From Escherichia phage ManiWeber_Bas99, in the sequence record PQ850618.1: DNA of 64,000 nt; one strand, given 5' to 3'. A program made the position numbers and the translations under genes. Of the stretch, positions 14,261 to 48,357 are shown in pieces. How positions within the stretch are numbered: position 1 is the first letter of the stretch; every line of letters starts with the position of its first letter. Below the pieces are notes generated by a model. The model was not told the DNA's origin, did not search any database, and saw only the letters and a list, made by a program, of their open reading frames with translations.

Positions 14261-14728
14261 ATGATTAACGTTTCCGGTTTTGGCGCTTCGATTCGTTTAG
14301 TGGCATCAAACACTTTTCCAAATGGTGTAACTCTTTCTGATTTCGCAGATGATGCTGATCCGATTGACGCGCCTGATCTTCAAATCTCTGAAGCGGCAAT
14401 GGGATTGAACGGTGACTTGGTAGTCTGGAACCGTGCCAACCCTCTTGAAGTAGGCGTCAACATCATCCCTACTTCTGAAAGCGATGTAAACTTAGATGTT
14501 CTGGCAGCGGCTAACCGTGTAGGCAAGCGCAAGAACTCTGCGAAAGACGTGATCACCCTTATTCTGACCTACCCTTCTGGCATGGTCATCACACTGAATA
14601 AGGGAACTTTGACGACTGGTTCAGTGATTCCTGGCATCCAGTCTCAGGGTCGTGTAAAAACACGTCAATATCGCTTTAAGTTTGAGAACGTAGTCAAAAC
14701 TGGCGTGAGCAACCAAGAGATTTTATAA
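14261..14728 (+). CDS. tail tube-like protein (paralog 1)
   Basis: 155 aa; N-terminus MINVSGFGASIRLVA... parallels the 15679 gene; position after the sheath-like gene. Confidence 0.45.
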   Translation: MINVSGFGASIRLVASNTFPNGVTLSDFADDADPIDAPDLQISEAAMGLNGDLVVWNRANPLEVGVNIIPTSESDVNLDVLAAANRVGKRKNSAKDVITLILTYPSGMVITLNKGTLTTGSVIPGIQSQGRVKTRQYRFKFENVVKTGVSNQEIL

Positions 14729-15057
14729 TGTATCAAATACCACTTGACAGCGTACCTAACCAGAATATCAGCTTTAACGTTGACGGTGCTTATTGGCAGC
14801 TGCACATATTCGCCGCAATTGAGCACATGTGCGCAGATGTTTACCGCAATGGCGAATTGTTGATTCAGGGGGTACGTTGTTTTGGTGGTATACCAATGGT
14901 GCCTTATAAATATCTCATGATTGGGTACGGCAACTTTATTTTTGACAGCGTACCCGATTATGAGCATTTTAACTCTGGCGGCTGTAATTTATATTACATG
15001 TCAGAATCTGAGTTGGCTGAATTCCAGAAAACTGCTGAAGCGGAGTTTGCAATTTGA
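14728..15057 (+). CDS. hypothetical tail protein
   Basis: ATG overlapping the upstream stop (TAATG). Confidence 0.45.
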   Translation: MYQIPLDSVPNQNISFNVDGAYWQLHIFAAIEHMCADVYRNGELLIQGVRCFGGIPMVPYKYLMIGYGNFIFDSVPDYEHFNSGGCNLYYMSESELAEFQKTAEAEFAI

Positions 15058-27874: not shown

Positions 27875-28519
27875 ATGATTAATGCAAACGTAATATCTAA
27901 AGGGACCGGATGCAGCATGGATGTTGCTGAAAAATGGGTCGACCCCTTCAAGCAGGCTTGTGAGCACTACGGAATCAAAAGCAAGAATGCCATCGCGGCG
28001 CTGCTTGCAAACGTAGGAGTGGAAACAGGCAGTCTGAAGACCTTTGTGGAAAACCTGAATTATTCCGCTCAAGGTCTTGCTAATACGTGGCCTAGCCGTT
28101 ACAGCGCCAGCGGTCGTTTCGGTGGCGCACCAAACTCCTTGGCATTGTCGATTGCCCGTAAACCAATGGAAATCGCCAATAATACATATGCAAACCGAAT
28201 GGGAAATGATTCGGTAGCATCTGGCGACGGTTGGAAGTACCGTGGCCGTGGTGCCATTCAGCTGACTGGAAAGGCTAACTATGCAGAGTATTCAAAACAA
28301 TCAGGGTATGACGCATTGAATAACCCTGACATTTTGACTGAGCCGAAATACATCGCTGACAGCGCGGCGTGGTTCTTCAAGAACAGCGGTTGCATTCCAC
28401 TTGCCGATGCGGGTGCATTTGATTCGACCGTGAAGCGGATTAACGGGGCCGCGCCGAATACGGCCAACCACGGGGATTTGCGACGGAAGCGTTACAAGGA
28501 TGCACTAGCAGTTATGTAA
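27875..28519 (+). CDS. endolysin, glycoside hydrolase family 19-like
   Basis: 214 aa; LANVGVETGSL...VENLNYS...YRGRGAIQLTGKANY fits the GH19 catalytic region. Confidence 0.65.
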   Translation: MINANVISKGTGCSMDVAEKWVDPFKQACEHYGIKSKNAIAALLANVGVETGSLKTFVENLNYSAQGLANTWPSRYSASGRFGGAPNSLALSIARKPMEIANNTYANRMGNDSVASGDGWKYRGRGAIQLTGKANYAEYSKQSGYDALNNPDILTEPKYIADSAAWFFKNSGCIPLADAGAFDSTVKRINGAAPNTANHGDLRRKRYKDALAVM

Positions 28520-28520
28520 G

Positions 28521-28551
28521 AAAAAGGCCCATATGGGCCTTTGTTTATTTT
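28521..28551. terminator. bidirectional rho-independent terminator
   Basis: AAAAAGGCCCATATGGGCCTTTGTTTATTTT: GC stem with A-run upstream and T-run downstream, between convergent genes. Confidence 0.6.
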
Positions 28552-28775
28552 ACGGCTTCAACCTGGACGGGTGGCGCGGAACTTGTATCAATGTCTGGCA
28601 AGTCGAAGTAATACCCCGCCATGCCAATCACGCCAACAATCGCGGCCCGTGCCACCTTGTTGCTAATTGACTCCCCAATAAGCTTTACCAACAGGGACAA
28701 GATTTGAGACGTCAAAGCCTTTTTCAGCCTTTTGTTTTCTTCCAAATCTTTCTGCATAACTACCACCCATGTCAA
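28545..28775 (-). CDS. small membrane protein (holin-like candidate)
   Basis: 76 aa with one hydrophobic segment AAIVGVIGMAGYYF; close to the endolysin but on the opposite strand. Confidence 0.35.
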   Translation of the reverse strand: MTWVVVMQKDLEENKRLKKALTSQILSLLVKLIGESISNKVARAAIVGVIGMAGYYFDLPDIDTSSAPPVQVEAVK

Positions 28776-29314
28776 CGCACATCCTGTGTCTTAACATTAC
28801 CTGAAGCATCTCTTAAGGGCAGTGGATAGTAGGCCATTTGGTAGTCTGATACGCCTTCAACATGATAAAACACGATTACGTCTTTGCTGTTGATGAGCAT
28901 GTTAACGACATCTGATTTATCTTCTGGAGTGAGTATGAGTGCGCCGCCTGTCCTGCTGTCTACTGCAACAGGGTATGTCTTGTCGACAAGGCCGCTGTCC
29001 AATGTATTATACCTGACAACGATTTCAGCGGCATCAACTTTTGCAATTGACATTCCGAACACAAACGAAACGACTTGGCGACCGCGATCATTCATTACGC
29101 ACATCTTTTCCTTATCAAACCTTTCCTTTATCACATCATATTTGTTCCAGCAAAATTCGAACGATTGGCCGTTGTTAAAATATCTCGTTAACACTTTGGC
29201 ATTACTATTTGGTGGCGTAAACATACTTTCAGCCGCTGCACTTTTGGTGAAGAACAAGACTGTCAGCATAGCCATGATGGTGATCAAAACAATCTTTAAA
29301 GTTTTCGATTTCAT
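28772..29314 (-). CDS. secreted protein of unknown function
   Basis: 180 aa with N-terminal signal peptide MKSKTLKIVLITIMAMLTVLFFTKSAAA. Confidence 0.5.
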   Translation of the reverse strand: MKSKTLKIVLITIMAMLTVLFFTKSAAAESMFTPPNSNAKVLTRYFNNGQSFEFCWNKYDVIKERFDKEKMCVMNDRGRQVVSFVFGMSIAKVDAAEIVVRYNTLDSGLVDKTYPVAVDSRTGGALILTPEDKSDVVNMLINSKDVIVFYHVEGVSDYQMAYYPLPLRDASGNVKTQDVR

Positions 29315-29490: not shown

Positions 29491-30453
29491 TTAAAAATAC
29501 TCCATATCGGTAATATCACGGAAGCATTTATACAAAGCAGAGCGCGGCACGTCGACGATGCCAAAGTTAAAGAATTTATACGTTAGGTATTTATCGCGAT
29601 AGTTCTCGCGATTCTCCCAAAGCATTTTACGCTCTGCCATAGGCATTGAACCAGCGGAGACGCGGAAAGGAATCATTTCACCTTTCTCATCCACATATTT
29701 TGGATTGACGACTACGAATGAGCCAAGGCATCCTTTCGCAACTAAACCTTCAGCCTCTTTTGAACGTTTGGTGCGACCCAATTCGTCAATGAATGCTTCG
29801 TTGTTGTTCTCCATCATCTCAACGAAGTCTATGATCAACCCTTCTTCATCGGTCCACGGCTTGTCCTTCCACACATCACGTGACTTCGGCGTCGCGCGCC
29901 CATGCTTATATTTGCCCGTCCAAGACTTGCCATACAAGCCTTCATATCCAAGCTGGTCTGCTTCGATTTGCATCGCCGCGTACTGTTCCATATTTTCGAT
30001 GTTTCGATATTCGAGAGCGCGAAGGAATGGGCGTCGACCATGGTTGATGAGATGTTGATTAACTTCAGCAACTCTAGCTCGATAGTTTGCATAACGCTTT
30101 TCAAAAGGCAGATCAGGGTCGCTGAAGTCATCAAACACCCACCATGTAAAGTTAGTGATTGCATCAGTATTCATGCATGCAGTATAGGCCTGTTGCATGA
30201 CGTTCTTATCATTTGGATTGCCGTCGATTAGCTCTCCATCAAGTCCGTGAATTAGTTCACCCAAAAAGAGGAACTCTTTTTTGATTTGAACGTTGCGCAA
30301 CGGCATGCCGGAAGTGCCCATTGGCAAGTTGTCATACGCCATTGCACGTATGCCATCGACCTTGAATGACAGTCCGCAAGGCAGCGGCACGTCCTCGCCG
30401 CGCTCGATAATCTGCTTACGTTGGCAACCCTTCATTGGTTTTAATGCTGTCAT
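29491..30453 (-). CDS. ATP-dependent DNA ligase
   Basis: 320 aa; nucleotidyltransferase motif I KVDGIR and DGELIDG. Confidence 0.65.
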   Translation of the reverse strand: MTALKPMKGCQRKQIIERGEDVPLPCGLSFKVDGIRAMAYDNLPMGTSGMPLRNVQIKKEFLFLGELIHGLDGELIDGNPNDKNVMQQAYTACMNTDAITNFTWWVFDDFSDPDLPFEKRYANYRARVAEVNQHLINHGRRPFLRALEYRNIENMEQYAAMQIEADQLGYEGLYGKSWTGKYKHGRATPKSRDVWKDKPWTDEEGLIIDFVEMMENNNEAFIDELGRTKRSKEAEGLVAKGCLGSFVVVNPKYVDEKGEMIPFRVSAGSMPMAERKMLWENRENYRDKYLTYKFFNFGIVDVPRSALYKCFRDITDMEYF

Positions 30454-30455
30454 AA

Positions 30456-31079
30456 TTATTGTCCTGTAACTTCTCTGATCACACGGTCTTCAAGTTCCAG
30501 CTTCTTTACCATTTTGCAGGAGTGCTCATAAGCCTGATCAGTCGATTTGATGAATGTGCCGTTGTACATGACACCTTTTCGGTCTTTAATGTCTTCGTAG
30601 GCAGCTTGCGCACAGTCGGATAAGCGAAGGCCATAATCATGAGCTACGCCGGAAAGGTAATCGACTGCGGCCATGATGGTCACGTCAATATCCATGGTCT
30701 GATTCTTAGCGATTGCATCACCAAGTCGTCCAAGGGTCTTTGCCAGGCGAAGGATAAATGAATGAGGGTGAGCACCTTTATCAGCGCAACCGCCGCCATT
30801 AATGTTTTCGATTTCAGTACCGTTTTGCGCTGCCAGGATGGTCAACACAACAAGGCAATCGCCGATGTCATCCTTAATTGCGGCCTGCAAGTCACAGATG
30901 GCCTGCTCTGTATATCCAATTTCAGGGTCAAAGAACACAAGGTCATGTAATTGATCAACGTGGTCTGTCAACTCCCCAAACTCGCTAATAAGCTTCGGGT
31001 ATTGGTCCTTAAGGTCGCAGCCTTGGATGATGTTACGGTCAGAAGCCCACTGGCGAATGTTTGCATAAATCTGGTTCAT
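30456..31079 (-). CDS. MazG-like nucleotide pyrophosphohydrolase
   Basis: 207 aa; ISEFGELTDHV and DDIGDCLVVLTILAA resemble MazG/HisE acidic helix motifs. Confidence 0.45.
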   Translation of the reverse strand: MNQIYANIRQWASDRNIIQGCDLKDQYPKLISEFGELTDHVDQLHDLVFFDPEIGYTEQAICDLQAAIKDDIGDCLVVLTILAAQNGTEIENINGGGCADKGAHPHSFILRLAKTLGRLGDAIAKNQTMDIDVTIMAAVDYLSGVAHDYGLRLSDCAQAAYEDIKDRKGVMYNGTFIKSTDQAYEHSCKMVKKLELEDRVIREVTGQ

Positions 31080-31594
31080 TTATTTTCCTTTGATGCATTG
31101 AATTGATCGATTTTAATTTTAGCCTGATTATAAGTATCAATCAAGCTATTAACTTTCTCTTTTAATCGATTTGTTTCTGCGGCGAACTGAACAAGAAATC
31201 TGACATCCTCTTCTGATAGTCCACAGTTTCCTTCTGGGATAGAGAGGCGTCCAGTGGTCGCAGAGTCGGGCACACTCCTGAGTAACTCACGGGAGCAGCT
31301 GAGTTGCTCGCGCAACTTGACATTCCCAGACTTGTAACGAGCAATAGTGCCATCAGCAACCAGTTGCGCTTCCTGGCGACCCTTCTCATATGCCGATGCC
31401 GATTCAACCTGTAAAGTTGCAATTTGCTCTTCGAGTGCATTTATCTTGTCCTTACGCTCATTAAGCGATGTCAGATATTGATTATACTTGGCCAGTGATG
31501 CGTTGGTTTGCTGCAGGTCTTCAACGTATGATCCAGCGGCAAACGCGCCAACAAGGGCCAGAATCTTCAGGAGCGGTACAATTCTTTCTATCAT
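31076..31594 (-). CDS. Rz: i-spanin (Rz-like)
   Basis: 172 aa; N-terminal transmembrane segment then coiled-coil region; contains an embedded out-of-frame lipoprotein ORF. Confidence 0.55.
   Translation of the reverse strand: MIERIVPLLKILALVGAFAAGSYVEDLQQTNASLAKYNQYLTSLNERKDKINALEEQIATLQVESASAYEKGRQEAQLVADGTIARYKSGNVKLREQLSCSRELLRSVPDSATTGRLSIPEGNCGLSEEDVRFLVQFAAETNRLKEKVNSLIDTYNQAKIKIDQFNASKENK
31162..31389 (-). CDS. Rz1: o-spanin (Rz1-like) embedded in the i-spanin gene
   Basis: Alternate frame within Rz; MRRVARKRN + hydrophobic stretch + relaxed lipobox GMSS-C, then short Pro-containing mature peptide. Confidence 0.45.
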   Translation of the reverse strand: MRRVARKRNWLLMALLLVTSLGMSSCASNSAAPVSYSGVCPTLRPLDASLSQKETVDYQKRMSDFLFSSPQKQID

Positions 31595-31651
31595 GATGCA
31601 CCAGATAAATAAAAGGCCGCCAATCGGCAGCCTTGTTGATTTGATTGTCGA

Positions 31652-32512
31652 TTAAAACTCTTCTGCGTCGGTCGGAGTTTCATTGACAGGACCAGCGGCA
31701 CCGCTTGCTTCTTCCTGCTTGCTGCGGTCAATGTTAACATTGCCGCCAACTACGTCGTTGTGGAATGCCTTGGCGACTTCGTACAGGCCTTTGTCCTGCA
31801 CCAGACCTTCCAGCTCAAACTTCAGAACAGACCAGGTGTTGCCGTCTTTGGACTGGGATGCAGTGCCCATGCGAACGATGTTCATAAAGGTCGGCGGCGT
31901 TTTCAGACCCTGCGGAGTCTGAACTTTCTTCTGCTGCAGAGCGGTCATCAGCATGCGAGACGGCTTGATCATGGAAGAAGTCAGAGACAGCATTGCGCTA
32001 CCAAATTCACCAGTTTCTTCGTTCAACAGAATTACGAAGTGGTTGCGTGTATCTGCGTAGTAAGGAGATTTCTTCTCGTGCACCTTGCCGTTTTCGTCCG
32101 GCACGAATACCTTACCGTTGATCTCAACAGCGCGGCCTGCTGCGACTTCTGCATCAACGTGCTCTTTGGTGAATTCACCTTTAAAGCCTTTATCGTCGGA
32201 CTCGCGACCGCCCCAAAGAATGAAGGTGCGTTTGAATGCGCAAGGGATGATCTGCACGCCTTTCTTGCCGTCATACAACTCACCAGTAACGGTGTTGTAA
32301 AGCATGCCAGCTTTTGCGCCAGGAACGTGTTTCGGATCATCTTCGTCGACCATAGGAGACATCTTCTGCAGTACGACGATAAAAGGAATGGCATACGCAT
32401 CGGCATCGGCACCTTCAAAACCAGCGCCAAAATCGGTCATGTCGACAAAATCAGCCATAGCGGACATCTGGGTGTTTTTCACTGCAACTTCGGTGGTTTC
32501 TTTCTTAGACAT
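31652..32512 (-). CDS. ssDNA-binding / annealing protein candidate
   Basis: 286 aa; Gly-rich, acidic C-terminal tail ending ...TDAEEF as in T7 gp2.5-type SSBs; in the replication module. Confidence 0.4.
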   Translation of the reverse strand: MSKKETTEVAVKNTQMSAMADFVDMTDFGAGFEGADADAYAIPFIVVLQKMSPMVDEDDPKHVPGAKAGMLYNTVTGELYDGKKGVQIIPCAFKRTFILWGGRESDDKGFKGEFTKEHVDAEVAAGRAVEINGKVFVPDENGKVHEKKSPYYADTRNHFVILLNEETGEFGSAMLSLTSSMIKPSRMLMTALQQKKVQTPQGLKTPPTFMNIVRMGTASQSKDGNTWSVLKFELEGLVQDKGLYEVAKAFHNDVVGGNVNIDRSKQEEASGAAGPVNETPTDAEEF

Positions 32513-32571
32513 TTGATATTTTCCTATAGTATCAAGTTTCGTGGCAACCTGATTTCAAGATAAAGGTTAAA

Positions 32572-33129
32572 TTACTTTTTGCTTTTAGGCAAGGTTATTT
32601 TAGCTTCTTTGTATTCAAAAACGCTAATATCTTCACTAACTGGATTGCCCGCTTCCAGCTGTTCTTTTACAAACGACTTCAGTGTAGCAGAATGAACGCC
32701 TTGTTTCAACGTGGCTTCAACACCATCTTCACGCAGCGCGGCAACAATCTCTTGCGCCTGTTCGATTTCTTCGCGACCGAACTCAGCCGTGACGCTGGAC
32801 TTGATCAAGCCGCCGTAACCGTTGTTGACAAGCCAATCGAAAACTTTTAATTCGTTTTCTTTCTTGATTGAAGCGTTCACCTTGGACTCGACCTTGATTT
32901 TGGTCTTGTCCTCAAGCTTGATTTCGGACACGCCAAGCTCATCCATAACGCCAGGAAGCAGAACAGTTTTGATTTCACTGATTCGCTGCTTTTGCATATC
33001 AGCTTCATCTTCAAGCTCTGTCAAAGCTTCTTGGCGTTCTGCCAGTTCAGATACTAAGCGCGCAAGGCGCTCTTGAATGCTCTCAGGAGCGACCTGCGGC
33101 AAATCATCTTCCCAATTAATATTGCTCAT
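32572..33129 (-). CDS. hypothetical coiled-coil protein
   Basis: 185 aa acidic ORF. Confidence 0.45.
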   Translation of the reverse strand: MSNINWEDDLPQVAPESIQERLARLVSELAERQEALTELEDEADMQKQRISEIKTVLLPGVMDELGVSEIKLEDKTKIKVESKVNASIKKENELKVFDWLVNNGYGGLIKSSVTAEFGREEIEQAQEIVAALREDGVEATLKQGVHSATLKSFVKEQLEAGNPVSEDISVFEYKEAKITLPKSKK

Positions 33130-44716: not shown

Positions 44717-45901
44717 TTAACGCGCTTTCAAATCACGGTACACGGTCAGATTCTTCTTAGCACGGGTGATAGCGGTGTACATCATCTTGGAGTACGGAAC
44801 GCCGCGCAAGATTTCTTCCAGCACGCACACATTGTCCCACTCGCTGCCTTGCGATTTGTGCACCGTGATGACATAGCCGTAGTCCATCCCGCCAACAGCA
44901 CGTTGCGCTTCTTTGCGCACTTCCTGATCAGTAGAGAAGGAAAGAGGATTAATCTTTACCTTTATATCTTTACCATCAGTCAATGAACGCAAGTTGACAT
45001 ACATTATTTCATTCGACTCATCTTCATCCCTTTCAAAGTCCGGCACTGGCTCATAGCTAATAACAATCCCTTGCTCGCCATTACAGAATCCTGGCCCGTG
45101 CTGGTTGAAGGTGCAAATAACTTTCTCGCCGATTCCTGGCATTGGCGTTATACGTCCGCTCACTTGCCGTAATAATGAATTCCATTTATCTTTGGTGCTA
45201 TTATAGGAGCAAATAATTTGATCATCTTCGCCCATGAATTTCTTCAATGCAGTAACGCGCGGCGATTCTGCCAATACTTTGACGTCATCGTATTCACGCG
45301 GAGGAAGGCGGTTGCCTTGGCGCACGAAGAAGGAGGCGCGGATTATATTGGACTCTTTCCCTTGCCGCATGATTTCTGTTAACAGTACGTCAACGGCATC
45401 TTCAGTAAAGTAGGCGGCGGCTTTTACCGGAGGGACTTGTCCAATGTCGCCTAATGCCAGGACAGGGATGCGGTGATCAAGAAGGCGCTCTGTGTCCCAC
45501 TCGCCAACCATCGACGCTTCATCGAGTACAACAAGGTGCGGCCTTTCATCCAGCTTTGACTTTCTCGAAAAGATTGGCTCATTGTCGTCATTTACGCCGC
45601 GCACGTTATAGATGAACTGGTGAAGGGTCTTAGCGCCACGACAGCCTTTTTGCTTTAATCGGCTTGCAGCCTTTCCGGTCGGCGCAATATAGATAGCTCC
45701 ATACTCACCGACACAACGGCGCACAATCTCGCGAGCAATAGAGGTTTTACCAGTTCCTGCATAGCCAGCGATGAAAAACACGCGCTTCGTCGTTTTACCG
45801 TCCTGCAATCGCTTGTACCATGCAACGGCTTTCTCGATGGCGTCGATTTGTTGCGCGTTAAACTGAATCACTGGCTCATCATTAAATTCTGGAATGTTCA
45901 T
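44717..45901 (-). CDS. Dda/RecD-like SF1B DNA helicase
   Basis: 394 aa; Walker A AGYAGTGKTS, Walker B LVVLDEASMV, C-terminal helicase motifs. Confidence 0.7.
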   Translation of the reverse strand: MNIPEFNDEPVIQFNAQQIDAIEKAVAWYKRLQDGKTTKRVFFIAGYAGTGKTSIAREIVRRCVGEYGAIYIAPTGKAASRLKQKGCRGAKTLHQFIYNVRGVNDDNEPIFSRKSKLDERPHLVVLDEASMVGEWDTERLLDHRIPVLALGDIGQVPPVKAAAYFTEDAVDVLLTEIMRQGKESNIIRASFFVRQGNRLPPREYDDVKVLAESPRVTALKKFMGEDDQIICSYNSTKDKWNSLLRQVSGRITPMPGIGEKVICTFNQHGPGFCNGEQGIVISYEPVPDFERDEDESNEIMYVNLRSLTDGKDIKVKINPLSFSTDQEVRKEAQRAVGGMDYGYVITVHKSQGSEWDNVCVLEEILRGVPYSKMMYTAITRAKKNLTVYRDLKAR

Positions 45902-48252: not shown

Positions 48253-48357
48253 ATGAAAGCCGTAAAGAAATACACATTAATCATTTCCCTTGTCATCATC
48301 CTGGGGCTATTATATGTATTGGATATGGCATATTATTTGGCAGGGGTGAGTGGATGA
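48253..48357 (+). CDS. small single-pass membrane peptide (34 aa)
   Basis: MKAVKKYTLIISLVIILGLLYVLDMAYYLAGVSG; stop overlaps the next start; not in the ORF track. Confidence 0.3.
   Translation: MKAVKKYTLIISLVIILGLLYVLDMAYYLAGVSG

Follow-up and report, generated by a model that had tools for sequence, protein, structure and literature searches.

The question raised by this locus is whether two genes of the leftward replication strand, one lying wholly inside the other, encode a spanin pair, and how such a pair would serve lysis at a distance from the endolysin. The window, that is, the whole stretch of DNA analysed, comprised 64,000 nucleotides from Escherichia phage ManiWeber_Bas99 (PQ850618.1), and the initial annotation, made from the sequence alone, had proposed an embedded pair of Rz/Rz1 type at this place. 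The proposal held, as the outer protein has a membrane anchor and a helical periplasmic domain, a lipoprotein gene is nested in its +1 frame, and the pair is homologous to spanins encoded in lysis cassettes. The locus is very probably an embedded two-component spanin, whose inner-membrane subunit and outer-membrane lipoprotein would span the periplasm and, after the endolysin has removed the peptidoglycan, destroy the outer membrane. The pair is already known and ordinary, because an orthologous pair was catalogued in 2018 and has been annotated in several GenBank records.

The phage belongs to Wifcevirus (PB1-like E. coli myophages), the best match being vB_EcoM_WFC, with 98.0% nucleotide identity. 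In a nucleotide search, the region 30400..32600 was matched by 28 phage records at 93-98% identity, all from Wifcevirus or Wifcevirus-like E. coli/Shigella myophages, and the gene order was that of BASEL phage Bas101, with an offset of around 24 bases. The plus strand carries the structural genes, of which the last ones are a tail fibre gene and then the endolysin. The minus strand, from around 46 kb down to 28.5 kb, encodes helicases, thymidylate synthase, a DnaE-type polymerase, two Pam3-like genes and the spanin pair, followed by MazG, ligase and two small genes. The downstream neighbour of the pair is MazG-like, in agreement with the initial annotation; the upstream neighbour (286 aa), which had been called SSB-like, matched Pfam Pam3_Gp34 instead (PF23977, E 4e-86), and the search for an SSB identity returned neither a PDB sequence relative nor an informative family beyond Pam3_Gp34. 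The i-spanin stop and the MazG-like start overlap in ATGA (31076..31079, minus strand; read directly from the sequence), an arrangement that is not universal, as in WFC the i-spanin stops with TAG and ATG follows at once. The endolysin (27875..28519, plus strand), the last gene of the rightward structural operon, is of GH19 type (Pfam Glyco_hydro_19, E 2e-7; PHROG 181 endolysin, E 4e-68), and its sequence has no hydrophobic N-terminus. It lies 2.56 kb from the spanin pair on the opposite strand, close to the 3 kb given earlier, and this separation was kept in all the Wifcevirus records examined and in three divergent lineages.

The outer, i-spanin gene (31076..31594, minus strand) encodes 172 aa, with a transmembrane (TM) anchor, a long helix, a Cys-containing linker and a second helix; it was assigned from the open reading frame, PHROG 1327, tblastn and an AlphaFold2 model. 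The PHROG 1327 'Rz-like spanin' profile covered most of the protein, residues 6-160 being aligned to positions 9-156 of its 158 (E 4e-27), and tblastn retrieved the Rz-like spanin of PY54 (E 9e-13; 28% identity) and the i-spanin of Burkholderia phage Mica (E 4e-7). Neither Pfam nor NCBIfam scans of both spanin proteins gave a spanin match, only sub-threshold coiled-coil noise being obtained. The N-terminal membrane anchor ascribed to this protein in the initial annotation was recovered, as was a helical periplasmic domain. The Kyte-Doolittle maximum (mean 2.3 over a 15-residue window) fell on residues 5-19, the sole strongly hydrophobic stretch, pointing to a single N-terminal TM domain of type II topology; the predicted segment, around residues 4-22 (RIVPLLKILALVGAFAAGS; codons at 31529..31585, minus strand), was helical in the AlphaFold2 model. 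This model, a monomer built on five sequences (mean pLDDT 74.8), presented a helix at residues 5-106, an unstructured linker or coil at 107-127 and a second helix at 128-171, that is, a periplasmic domain of two helices joined by a linker. A scan of IMG/VR with the i-spanin yielded four near-identical Wifcevirus contigs only, and the divergent relatives came from the protein database: three, with 63-67% identity, on contigs of 17-72 kb (L010, L011, and L012) displaying the same gene order as the window. Across these lineages the N-terminal ALxGAFAAGSYVEDL was invariant, and so were Cys100 and Cys124, in the linker region, in four lineages.

The nested o-spanin gene occupies the +1 frame at 31162..31440 (minus strand), wholly inside the outer gene (nt 155-433 of 519), as in spanins of embedded architecture under the definition of Summer (2007) and Kongari (2018). 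On the grounds of its open reading frame, lipobox, conservation and homology, it would encode a precursor of 92 aa and a mature peptide of 50 aa starting at Cys43. A very basic N-region and a hydrophobic run (LLMALLLVTSLG) precede the lipobox M-S-S-C at residues 40-43 (31312..31323, minus strand; pattern match), in which Cys43 is the predicted lipidated residue. With Ala44 at +2 and no Asp at this position, the signal corresponded to that of an outer-membrane lipoprotein, as judged by a rule-based pattern; under the sorting rule of the Lol pathway, Ala at +2 predicts outer-membrane sorting. Two features count against it: the 42 residues placed before the lipobox Cys by the start at 31440 are long for a lipoprotein signal, and the residue at -3 of the lipobox is Met in the window, where most relatives have Ile.

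The start of the nested gene required separate consideration. The initial annotation had described the lipoprotein frame as 31162..31389; the frame and the lipobox stand, and the start is better placed upstream. An in-frame internal ATG at 31389 would give 75 aa, with the lipobox Cys at position 26 in place of 43. The ATG at 31440 is preceded, 8 nt upstream, by an AAGGA Shine-Dalgarno sequence (31449..31453, minus strand; identified from the anti-SD duplex energy) that is conserved across lineages, with anti-SD duplexes of -5.4 to -5.9 kcal/mol in all four of them. In three of the lineages this duplex was stronger than those at the remaining candidate starts; L011, the exception, has a stronger site at a lineage-specific ATG that lies 19 codons ahead of the Cys. 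Moreover, the outer codon lying over this ATG reads AAT, TAT, CAT, or GAT (Asn, Tyr, His, or Asp) in the four lineages and the next base is always G; the outer residue thus drifts while the nested ATG is kept. The ATG at 31389 is likewise conserved, which is uninformative because it lies within the invariant outer motif A-Y-E. Taken together, these sequence features make a start at 31440 more likely than one at 31389, and both may be in use.

Relatives in other phages link the pair to lysis. The o-spanin matched an ORF nested in the Rz-like gene of PY54 (52% identity over 56 aa; E 3e-18), and the motif C..CP..P.D..L....D[FY]...M..FLF, made up of the lipobox Cys, a second Cys with Pro next to it and the residues beyond, was common to the window o-spanin and the nested ORFs of PY54, Yersinia phage P744, Pantoea phage Nafs113, and Burkholderia phage Mica. 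Cys43, Cys57, and Pro58 were invariant in an alignment of eight o-spanin sequences. Invariant periplasmic cysteines are therefore found in both subunits (Cys100 and Cys124 of the i-spanin, Cys57 of the o-spanin), such residues being a requirement described for the spanins of lambda and other phages (PMC6139136). The i-spanin homologues of PY54 and Mica directly follow a holin and an endolysin, and that of Mica carries a PF03245 note from its annotators; this cassette position links the spanin family to lysis through its gene neighbourhood, in addition to its architecture.

A stable, terminator-like, GC-rich hairpin with a U-tract, located by scanning and folding energy (31603..31634, minus strand; -15.9 kcal/mol, z -3.1), ends, together with the UUUUAUUUAU that follows the hairpin, 9 nt before the i-spanin ATG. 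In the Mansfield and WFC records a terminator is annotated here. A hairpin with a T-run was present at the matching place in L010-L012, Pbunavirus goonie, and Serratia phage Hera, each having its own. RNAalifold applied to the six upstream hairpins gave no compensatory pairs, because the Pbunavirus sequence was aligned out of register, so that our claim is limited to individual hairpins with T-runs and does not extend to covariation. In a sigma-70 promoter scan, sites were no more frequent than in shuffles, and no promoter is therefore claimed for the spanin. As the genes lie on the leftward strand, directly after the hairpin and upstream of MazG and ligase, they are probably expressed at a modest or reduced level, from transcripts of the upstream replication genes that read through. 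Mass spectrometry of vB_Eco4M-7 and ECML-117 lysates did not include the spanin among the detected proteins (PMC7048862), which is weak evidence against the pair because membrane proteins are easily missed. In the same work the 20.7 and 31.2 kDa products of the two genes just upstream of the spanin were abundant; this contrast is compatible with a drop of expression at the hairpin and is no proof of it.

A reading to be weighed against the spanin is that the nested ORF is an unexpressed by-product of the composition of the outer gene, whose product would be a coiled-coil protein, anchored in the membrane, that takes part in replication or tethers the replisome to the membrane. The place of the gene, between replication and nucleotide-metabolism genes and coupled to MazG, suits this reading, as does the lack of a Pfam or NCBIfam match for either protein; the homologues, however, sit in canonical lysis cassettes. 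An ORF of 45 aa is open in the +2 frame of this stretch too, and when the codon order of the outer gene was shuffled 20,000 times, alternative-frame ATG ORFs of at least 92 aa arose in 2.3% of the shuffles; a lipoprotein-like signal, in contrast, appeared in just 0.065% of them, and the features of the nested ORF therefore exceed chance. The nested +1 frame was open in L010, L011, and L012, in spite of an outer identity of 63-67%, its lipobox reading AISGC or AISSC and its mature o-spanin peptide being almost unaltered. Frame, lipobox, second Cys and C-terminal motif were in this way kept among these lineages and also in PY54, P744, Nafs113, and Mica, and the nested ATG was preserved against change in the outer codon. 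Third-position divergence of the outer gene dropped from 0.576 in the non-overlapped 5' part to 0.206 in the overlap with the mature o-spanin (four lineages pooled; Fisher P per pair from 9e-7 to 7e-5), the third position of the outer codons being the second position of the nested ones; this suppression at wobble positions is specific to the overlap and argues against a by-product. From these sequence comparisons we take the nested frame to be coding, and an unexpressed by-product appears extremely improbable. The structure of the two genes, the constraint on both frames and the homology of the pair to spanins are direct observations.

A different possibility accepts a true spanin-type complex whose main task would be an early one at the envelope (superinfection exclusion or envelope remodelling, for example), in place of terminal lysis. 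It would explain why the pair is encoded outside the late genes, among replication genes of the leftward strand and behind a terminator-like hairpin, and the very fast development of Wifcevirus (about 10 min; PMC7048862) also speaks for it. Early synthesis is equally compatible with a role in lysis, however, since spanins are harmless before peptidoglycan removal (Kongari et al., 2018, PMC6139136, and the lambda work cited there); being inactive until the peptidoglycan is gone, they could be made before the late genes with no damage to the cell. The spanin genes of T4, too, are unlinked from holin and endolysin. For these reasons an early role is very improbable in our judgement, and we know of no spanin homologue with an early envelope role. 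Most likely, Wifcevirus uses the pair to break the outer membrane of the host at lysis. A literature search returned no experiments on any Wifcevirus spanin.

The spanin reading can be laid out as follows. The i-spanin would be a type II inner-membrane protein of 172 aa, with two long helices and a Cys-containing linker in its periplasmic part. The o-spanin precursor would be cleaved and lipidated at Cys43, giving an outer-membrane lipoprotein of 50 residues, and the C-terminal regions of both subunits would bind across the periplasm with intermolecular disulfides, by analogy with lambda Rz/Rz1. Synthesis probably precedes expression of the late structural operon, whose last gene is the endolysin, or is independent of that operon. 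By the same analogy, the peptidoglycan would keep the complex caged and, once this layer had been removed by the endolysin, the freed complex would fuse or disrupt the inner and outer membranes, thus completing lysis.

The initial annotation had also stated that no canonical holin lies next to the endolysin, and had named two small membrane ORFs as candidates. A hydropathy scan of all non-overlapping ORFs indeed revealed no classical holin with two or three TM domains, and no holin annotation was present in the Wifcevirus records examined. A homologue of the Pantoea phage protein PA1-LRP does adjoin the endolysin, though: the first candidate (28545..28757, minus strand) is a small two-helix protein of PHROG 5165 (E 2e-8), with 52% identity over 52 aa to PA1-LRP (E 3e-18), which we located in the Pantoea phage PA1 genome by means of the published primers. 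PA1-LRP alone is reported to be toxic or growth-inhibiting in E. coli and to promote lysis that depends on the endolysin, killing being strongly enhanced when the two are combined (PMC11538084). The two helices of the PHROG 5165 gene product are weakly hydrophobic, and the gene is a neighbour of the endolysin gene across Wifcevirus, Pbunavirus, Myosmarvirus, and Kylevirus, irrespective of endolysin type. By homology and position it is the best holin-like candidate; such a role is suggestive and unproven. The second candidate (48253..48357), a 34-aa peptide with a single TM segment in the small-ORF block of the plus strand, was rejected, as nothing links it to lysis. The PA1-LRP homologue lies on the strand of the spanins, downstream of two terminator-like hairpins, so that the lysis genes are loosely grouped around the convergent junction; their separation, previously described as dispersal, is real, and they are not scattered.

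In related phages the slot that follows the hairpin and precedes MazG is filled by a different gene. Its product in Pbunavirus (goonie gp49, E215 gp30), Serratia phage Hera (gp67), and Pantoea phage PA1 is an unrelated membrane protein of around 200 aa that belongs to PHROG 1544, with a Gly-zipper N-terminus, a coiled coil and two C-terminal TM segments, and that is spread over the genera Pbunavirus, Myosmarvirus, and Kylevirus; no homologue of it was found in the window. In the Myosmarvirus MTx, a relative of Hera, the annotators identified neither holin nor spanin (PMC6588376). The slot between the Pam3_Gp34-like gene and MazG might be a site where envelope-lysis functions are swapped in PB1-like myophages, an idea that we regard as rather doubtful. 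Were the function of the slot constant, PHROG 1544 would represent a holin or a disruptor of the outer membrane that is uncharacterised, and the PY54-type pair of Wifcevirus a non-orthologous replacement. A search of the 10 kb of Pbunavirus E215 that are syntenic did not reveal the u-spanin of the PB1 family (AWAC lipobox; Kongari et al.). The 'U-spanin' label of ORF85 in phage JJ01 falls on a DUF7307 homologue with neither lipobox nor TM segment, and it was discarded as evidence for a spanin in this neighbourhood.

Names given to the pair vary among database records. The Mansfield record annotates i-spanin and o-spanin with their ribosome-binding sites, those of Bas98, Bas100, and Bas101 annotate 'Rz-like spanin' and 'o-spanin', and the RefSeq copies of WFC, WFH, FEC19, and ECML-117 name the outer gene 'Rz-like spanin'. 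Both genes are thus already called by careful annotators (Center for Phage Technology, BASEL). Of the 25 Wifcevirus records listed (28 matched), the majority call the outer gene 'hypothetical protein', which is its name in all the remaining listed records that carry any annotation, and among the matches listed a second spanin-type name for the nested gene occurs only in Mansfield and the three BASEL phages. The spanin annotation can therefore be propagated to other Wifcevirus records. Beyond this, the comparative data provide a clean dual-coding signature and support for the 92-aa precursor. Together with the PA1-LRP homologue, the pair makes the lysis gene set of Wifcevirus, a genus noted for its very short infection cycle, amenable to tests in those BASEL isolates able to grow on engineered E. 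coli K-12.

Among known systems, the closest is that of ECML-117, which Kongari et al. (2018, SpaninDB, PMC6139136) include in the embedded two-component class, each subunit forming a singleton family, with coordinates 45375..45894 and 45461..45689 of JX128258 and the o-spanin at 0.395 L to 0.834 L according to the supplement. It is an orthologue of the window pair, with an i-spanin 98% identical and alike in its nested +1 frame, neighbours and upstream hairpin, and its listed ribosome-binding context, 'ggccttttatttatctGGTgcatc', is identical to that of the window. It differs in the lipobox, ISSC as against MSSC in the window, and in the o-spanin start adopted by Kongari et al., an internal ATG (corresponding to 31389) that gives 75 aa, whereas Mansfield and the BASEL phages use 92 aa. 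PY54 offers a second comparison: both proteins of its pair (ORF63 and the nested o-spanin) are homologous to those of the window and share the embedded +1 architecture, but they belong to a classical holin-endolysin cassette, whereas the window pair is found 2.6 kb off, on the other strand and among replication genes. Although the spanins of PY54 and ECML-117 were set as separate singletons by Kongari et al. (2018), they are, judging by these matches, related.

The likeness to lambda Rz/Rz1 is one of plan. In both systems a +1-frame o-spanin gene lies entirely within the i-spanin gene, the i-spanin consists of a TM domain, a helix, a Cys-containing linker and a further helix, and the o-spanin is a short lipoprotein in which a Pro-containing stretch comes after a second Cys. 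In lambda, by contrast, the genes close the S-R-Rz/Rz1 late cassette, and mature Rz1 has 10 Pro in 40 residues as compared with 4 in 50 in the window o-spanin (PMC6139136). With hhalign, lambda Rz and the window i-spanin displayed no significant similarity (probability 0.1%), and Rz1 aligned weakly with the window o-spanin (probability 43%, E 2e-4), with the two Cys in register; Pfam Phage_lysis (PF03245, Rz) matched neither spanin protein at E<=0.1. In view of these results, 'Rz/Rz1-type' describes the architecture and not membership of the lambda sequence family, and the link of the window pair to spanins runs through PHROG 1327 and through PY54 and Mica. As regards location, the counterpart is T4, whose PseT.3/PseT.2 spanins are likewise encoded apart from the holin and endolysin genes (PMC6139136), although by separate, non-nested genes for which a sequence relationship is not expected; T4 thus represents a precedent for a spanin pair distant from the other lysis genes.

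Lipobox position -3 of the o-spanin (codon 31321..31323, minus strand) varied among closely related phages, Met being found in the window and in WFC, whereas ECML-117, FEC19 and one metagenome contig (L006) have Ile. The single base change responsible also toggles an i-spanin residue between Val and Ile (SGNVKL/SGNIKL); the two differences are therefore one substitution read in both frames, and it is conservative in each of them.

The lysin gene itself differed between lineages. At the endolysin position, two of the three divergent Wifcevirus-like metagenomic lineages carried a lambda-R-like lysin (MLAWSEGT...GYDVIVYG...) on the minus strand (L010:11065-11520 and L011:11078-11530), whereas the window and the third lineage, L012, presented a GH19-type endolysin. 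L010 and L011 retain the spanin pair as well as the small genes nearby, and the endolysin alone looks to have been exchanged as a module. Convergent to the endolysin gene of the window, the small gene at 28545..28757 (minus strand) encodes a PHROG 5165 protein displaying 52% identity over 52 aa (E 3e-18) with PA1-LRP, the lysis-promoting protein of Pantoea phage PA1, which in E. coli was reported to be toxic and to enhance endolysin-dependent killing (PMC11538084). The initial annotation had proposed an ORF at 28545..28775 as a possible holin; the PHROG 5165 protein is a plausible non-canonical holin candidate for both Wifcevirus and Pbunavirus. The PHROG 5165 gene was labelled 'hypothetical' in all 36 annotated records (40 sampled). 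Between the ligase gene and this LRP-like gene, a further minus-strand gene (28772..29314) encodes a protein of 180 aa whose signal peptide looks cleavable (…FTKSAAA/ES) and which has no family match. It is kept in Wifcevirus, in all three metagenomic lineages and in phage PA1; at the equivalent position, Serratia phage Hera encodes a signal-peptide protein of comparable size. This product may be a putative periplasmic partner of the lysis system.

Spanin labels in other phage records appeared doubtful in two cases. In the record of Pantoea phage Nafs113, 'putative o-spanin' designates an upstream lipoprotein gene, ORF67 (L009:5467-5733). The i-spanin gene ORF66 (L009:5734-6234) holds a nested +1 ORF (MKKPWLIIALVISGCANNSP...FLF...) homologous to o-spanins of the Wifcevirus/PY54-type family, and from sequence ORF67 is probably the wrong gene for this label. 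The published 'U-spanin' of phage JJ01, ORF85, corresponds in length (621 nt) and in its place immediately downstream of the SNF2 helicase to goonie_51 (L016:4124-4744), the Pbunavirus homologue of the DUF7307 (Pam3 gp33-like) protein encoded at 32572..33129 (minus strand). As goonie_51 lacks a lipobox, a cysteine-containing signal and any hydrophobic segment, the JJ01 label appears to be an annotation-transfer error. A search of the syntenic 10 kb of E215 revealed no AWAC lipobox.

The neighbouring gene initially described as SSB-like (31652..32512, minus strand) belongs to the Pam3_Gp34 family (PF23977, E 4e-86). Its product had no relative by sequence in the PDB and matched nothing in NCBIfam, and homologues occurred in 484 phage records, the majority from Pbunavirus. 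Directly 3' of this gene lies a terminator-like hairpin with a T-run (31603..31634, minus strand), found at the equivalent position in every PB1-like relative examined (L010, L011, L012, Pbunavirus goonie and Hera), its sequence differing in Pbunavirus. Products of the two genes upstream of the hairpin were abundant in lysate proteomics (PMC7048862).

The slot between this hairpin and the MazG-like gene, corresponding to 31076..31594, was occupied in other PB1-like phages by a PHROG 1544 membrane protein (L016:5789-6394 in goonie, L017:5940-6545 in Hera, and L018:5289-5897 and L021 about 14643-14894, the last on the minus strand, in two further relatives), a homologue of which is absent from the window. 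This protein combines a Gly-zipper N-terminus, a coiled coil and two C-terminal hydrophobic segments. The slot holds the spanin pair in Wifcevirus, whereas in Pbunavirus, Myosmarvirus and Kylevirus it holds an unrelated membrane protein of ~200 aa.
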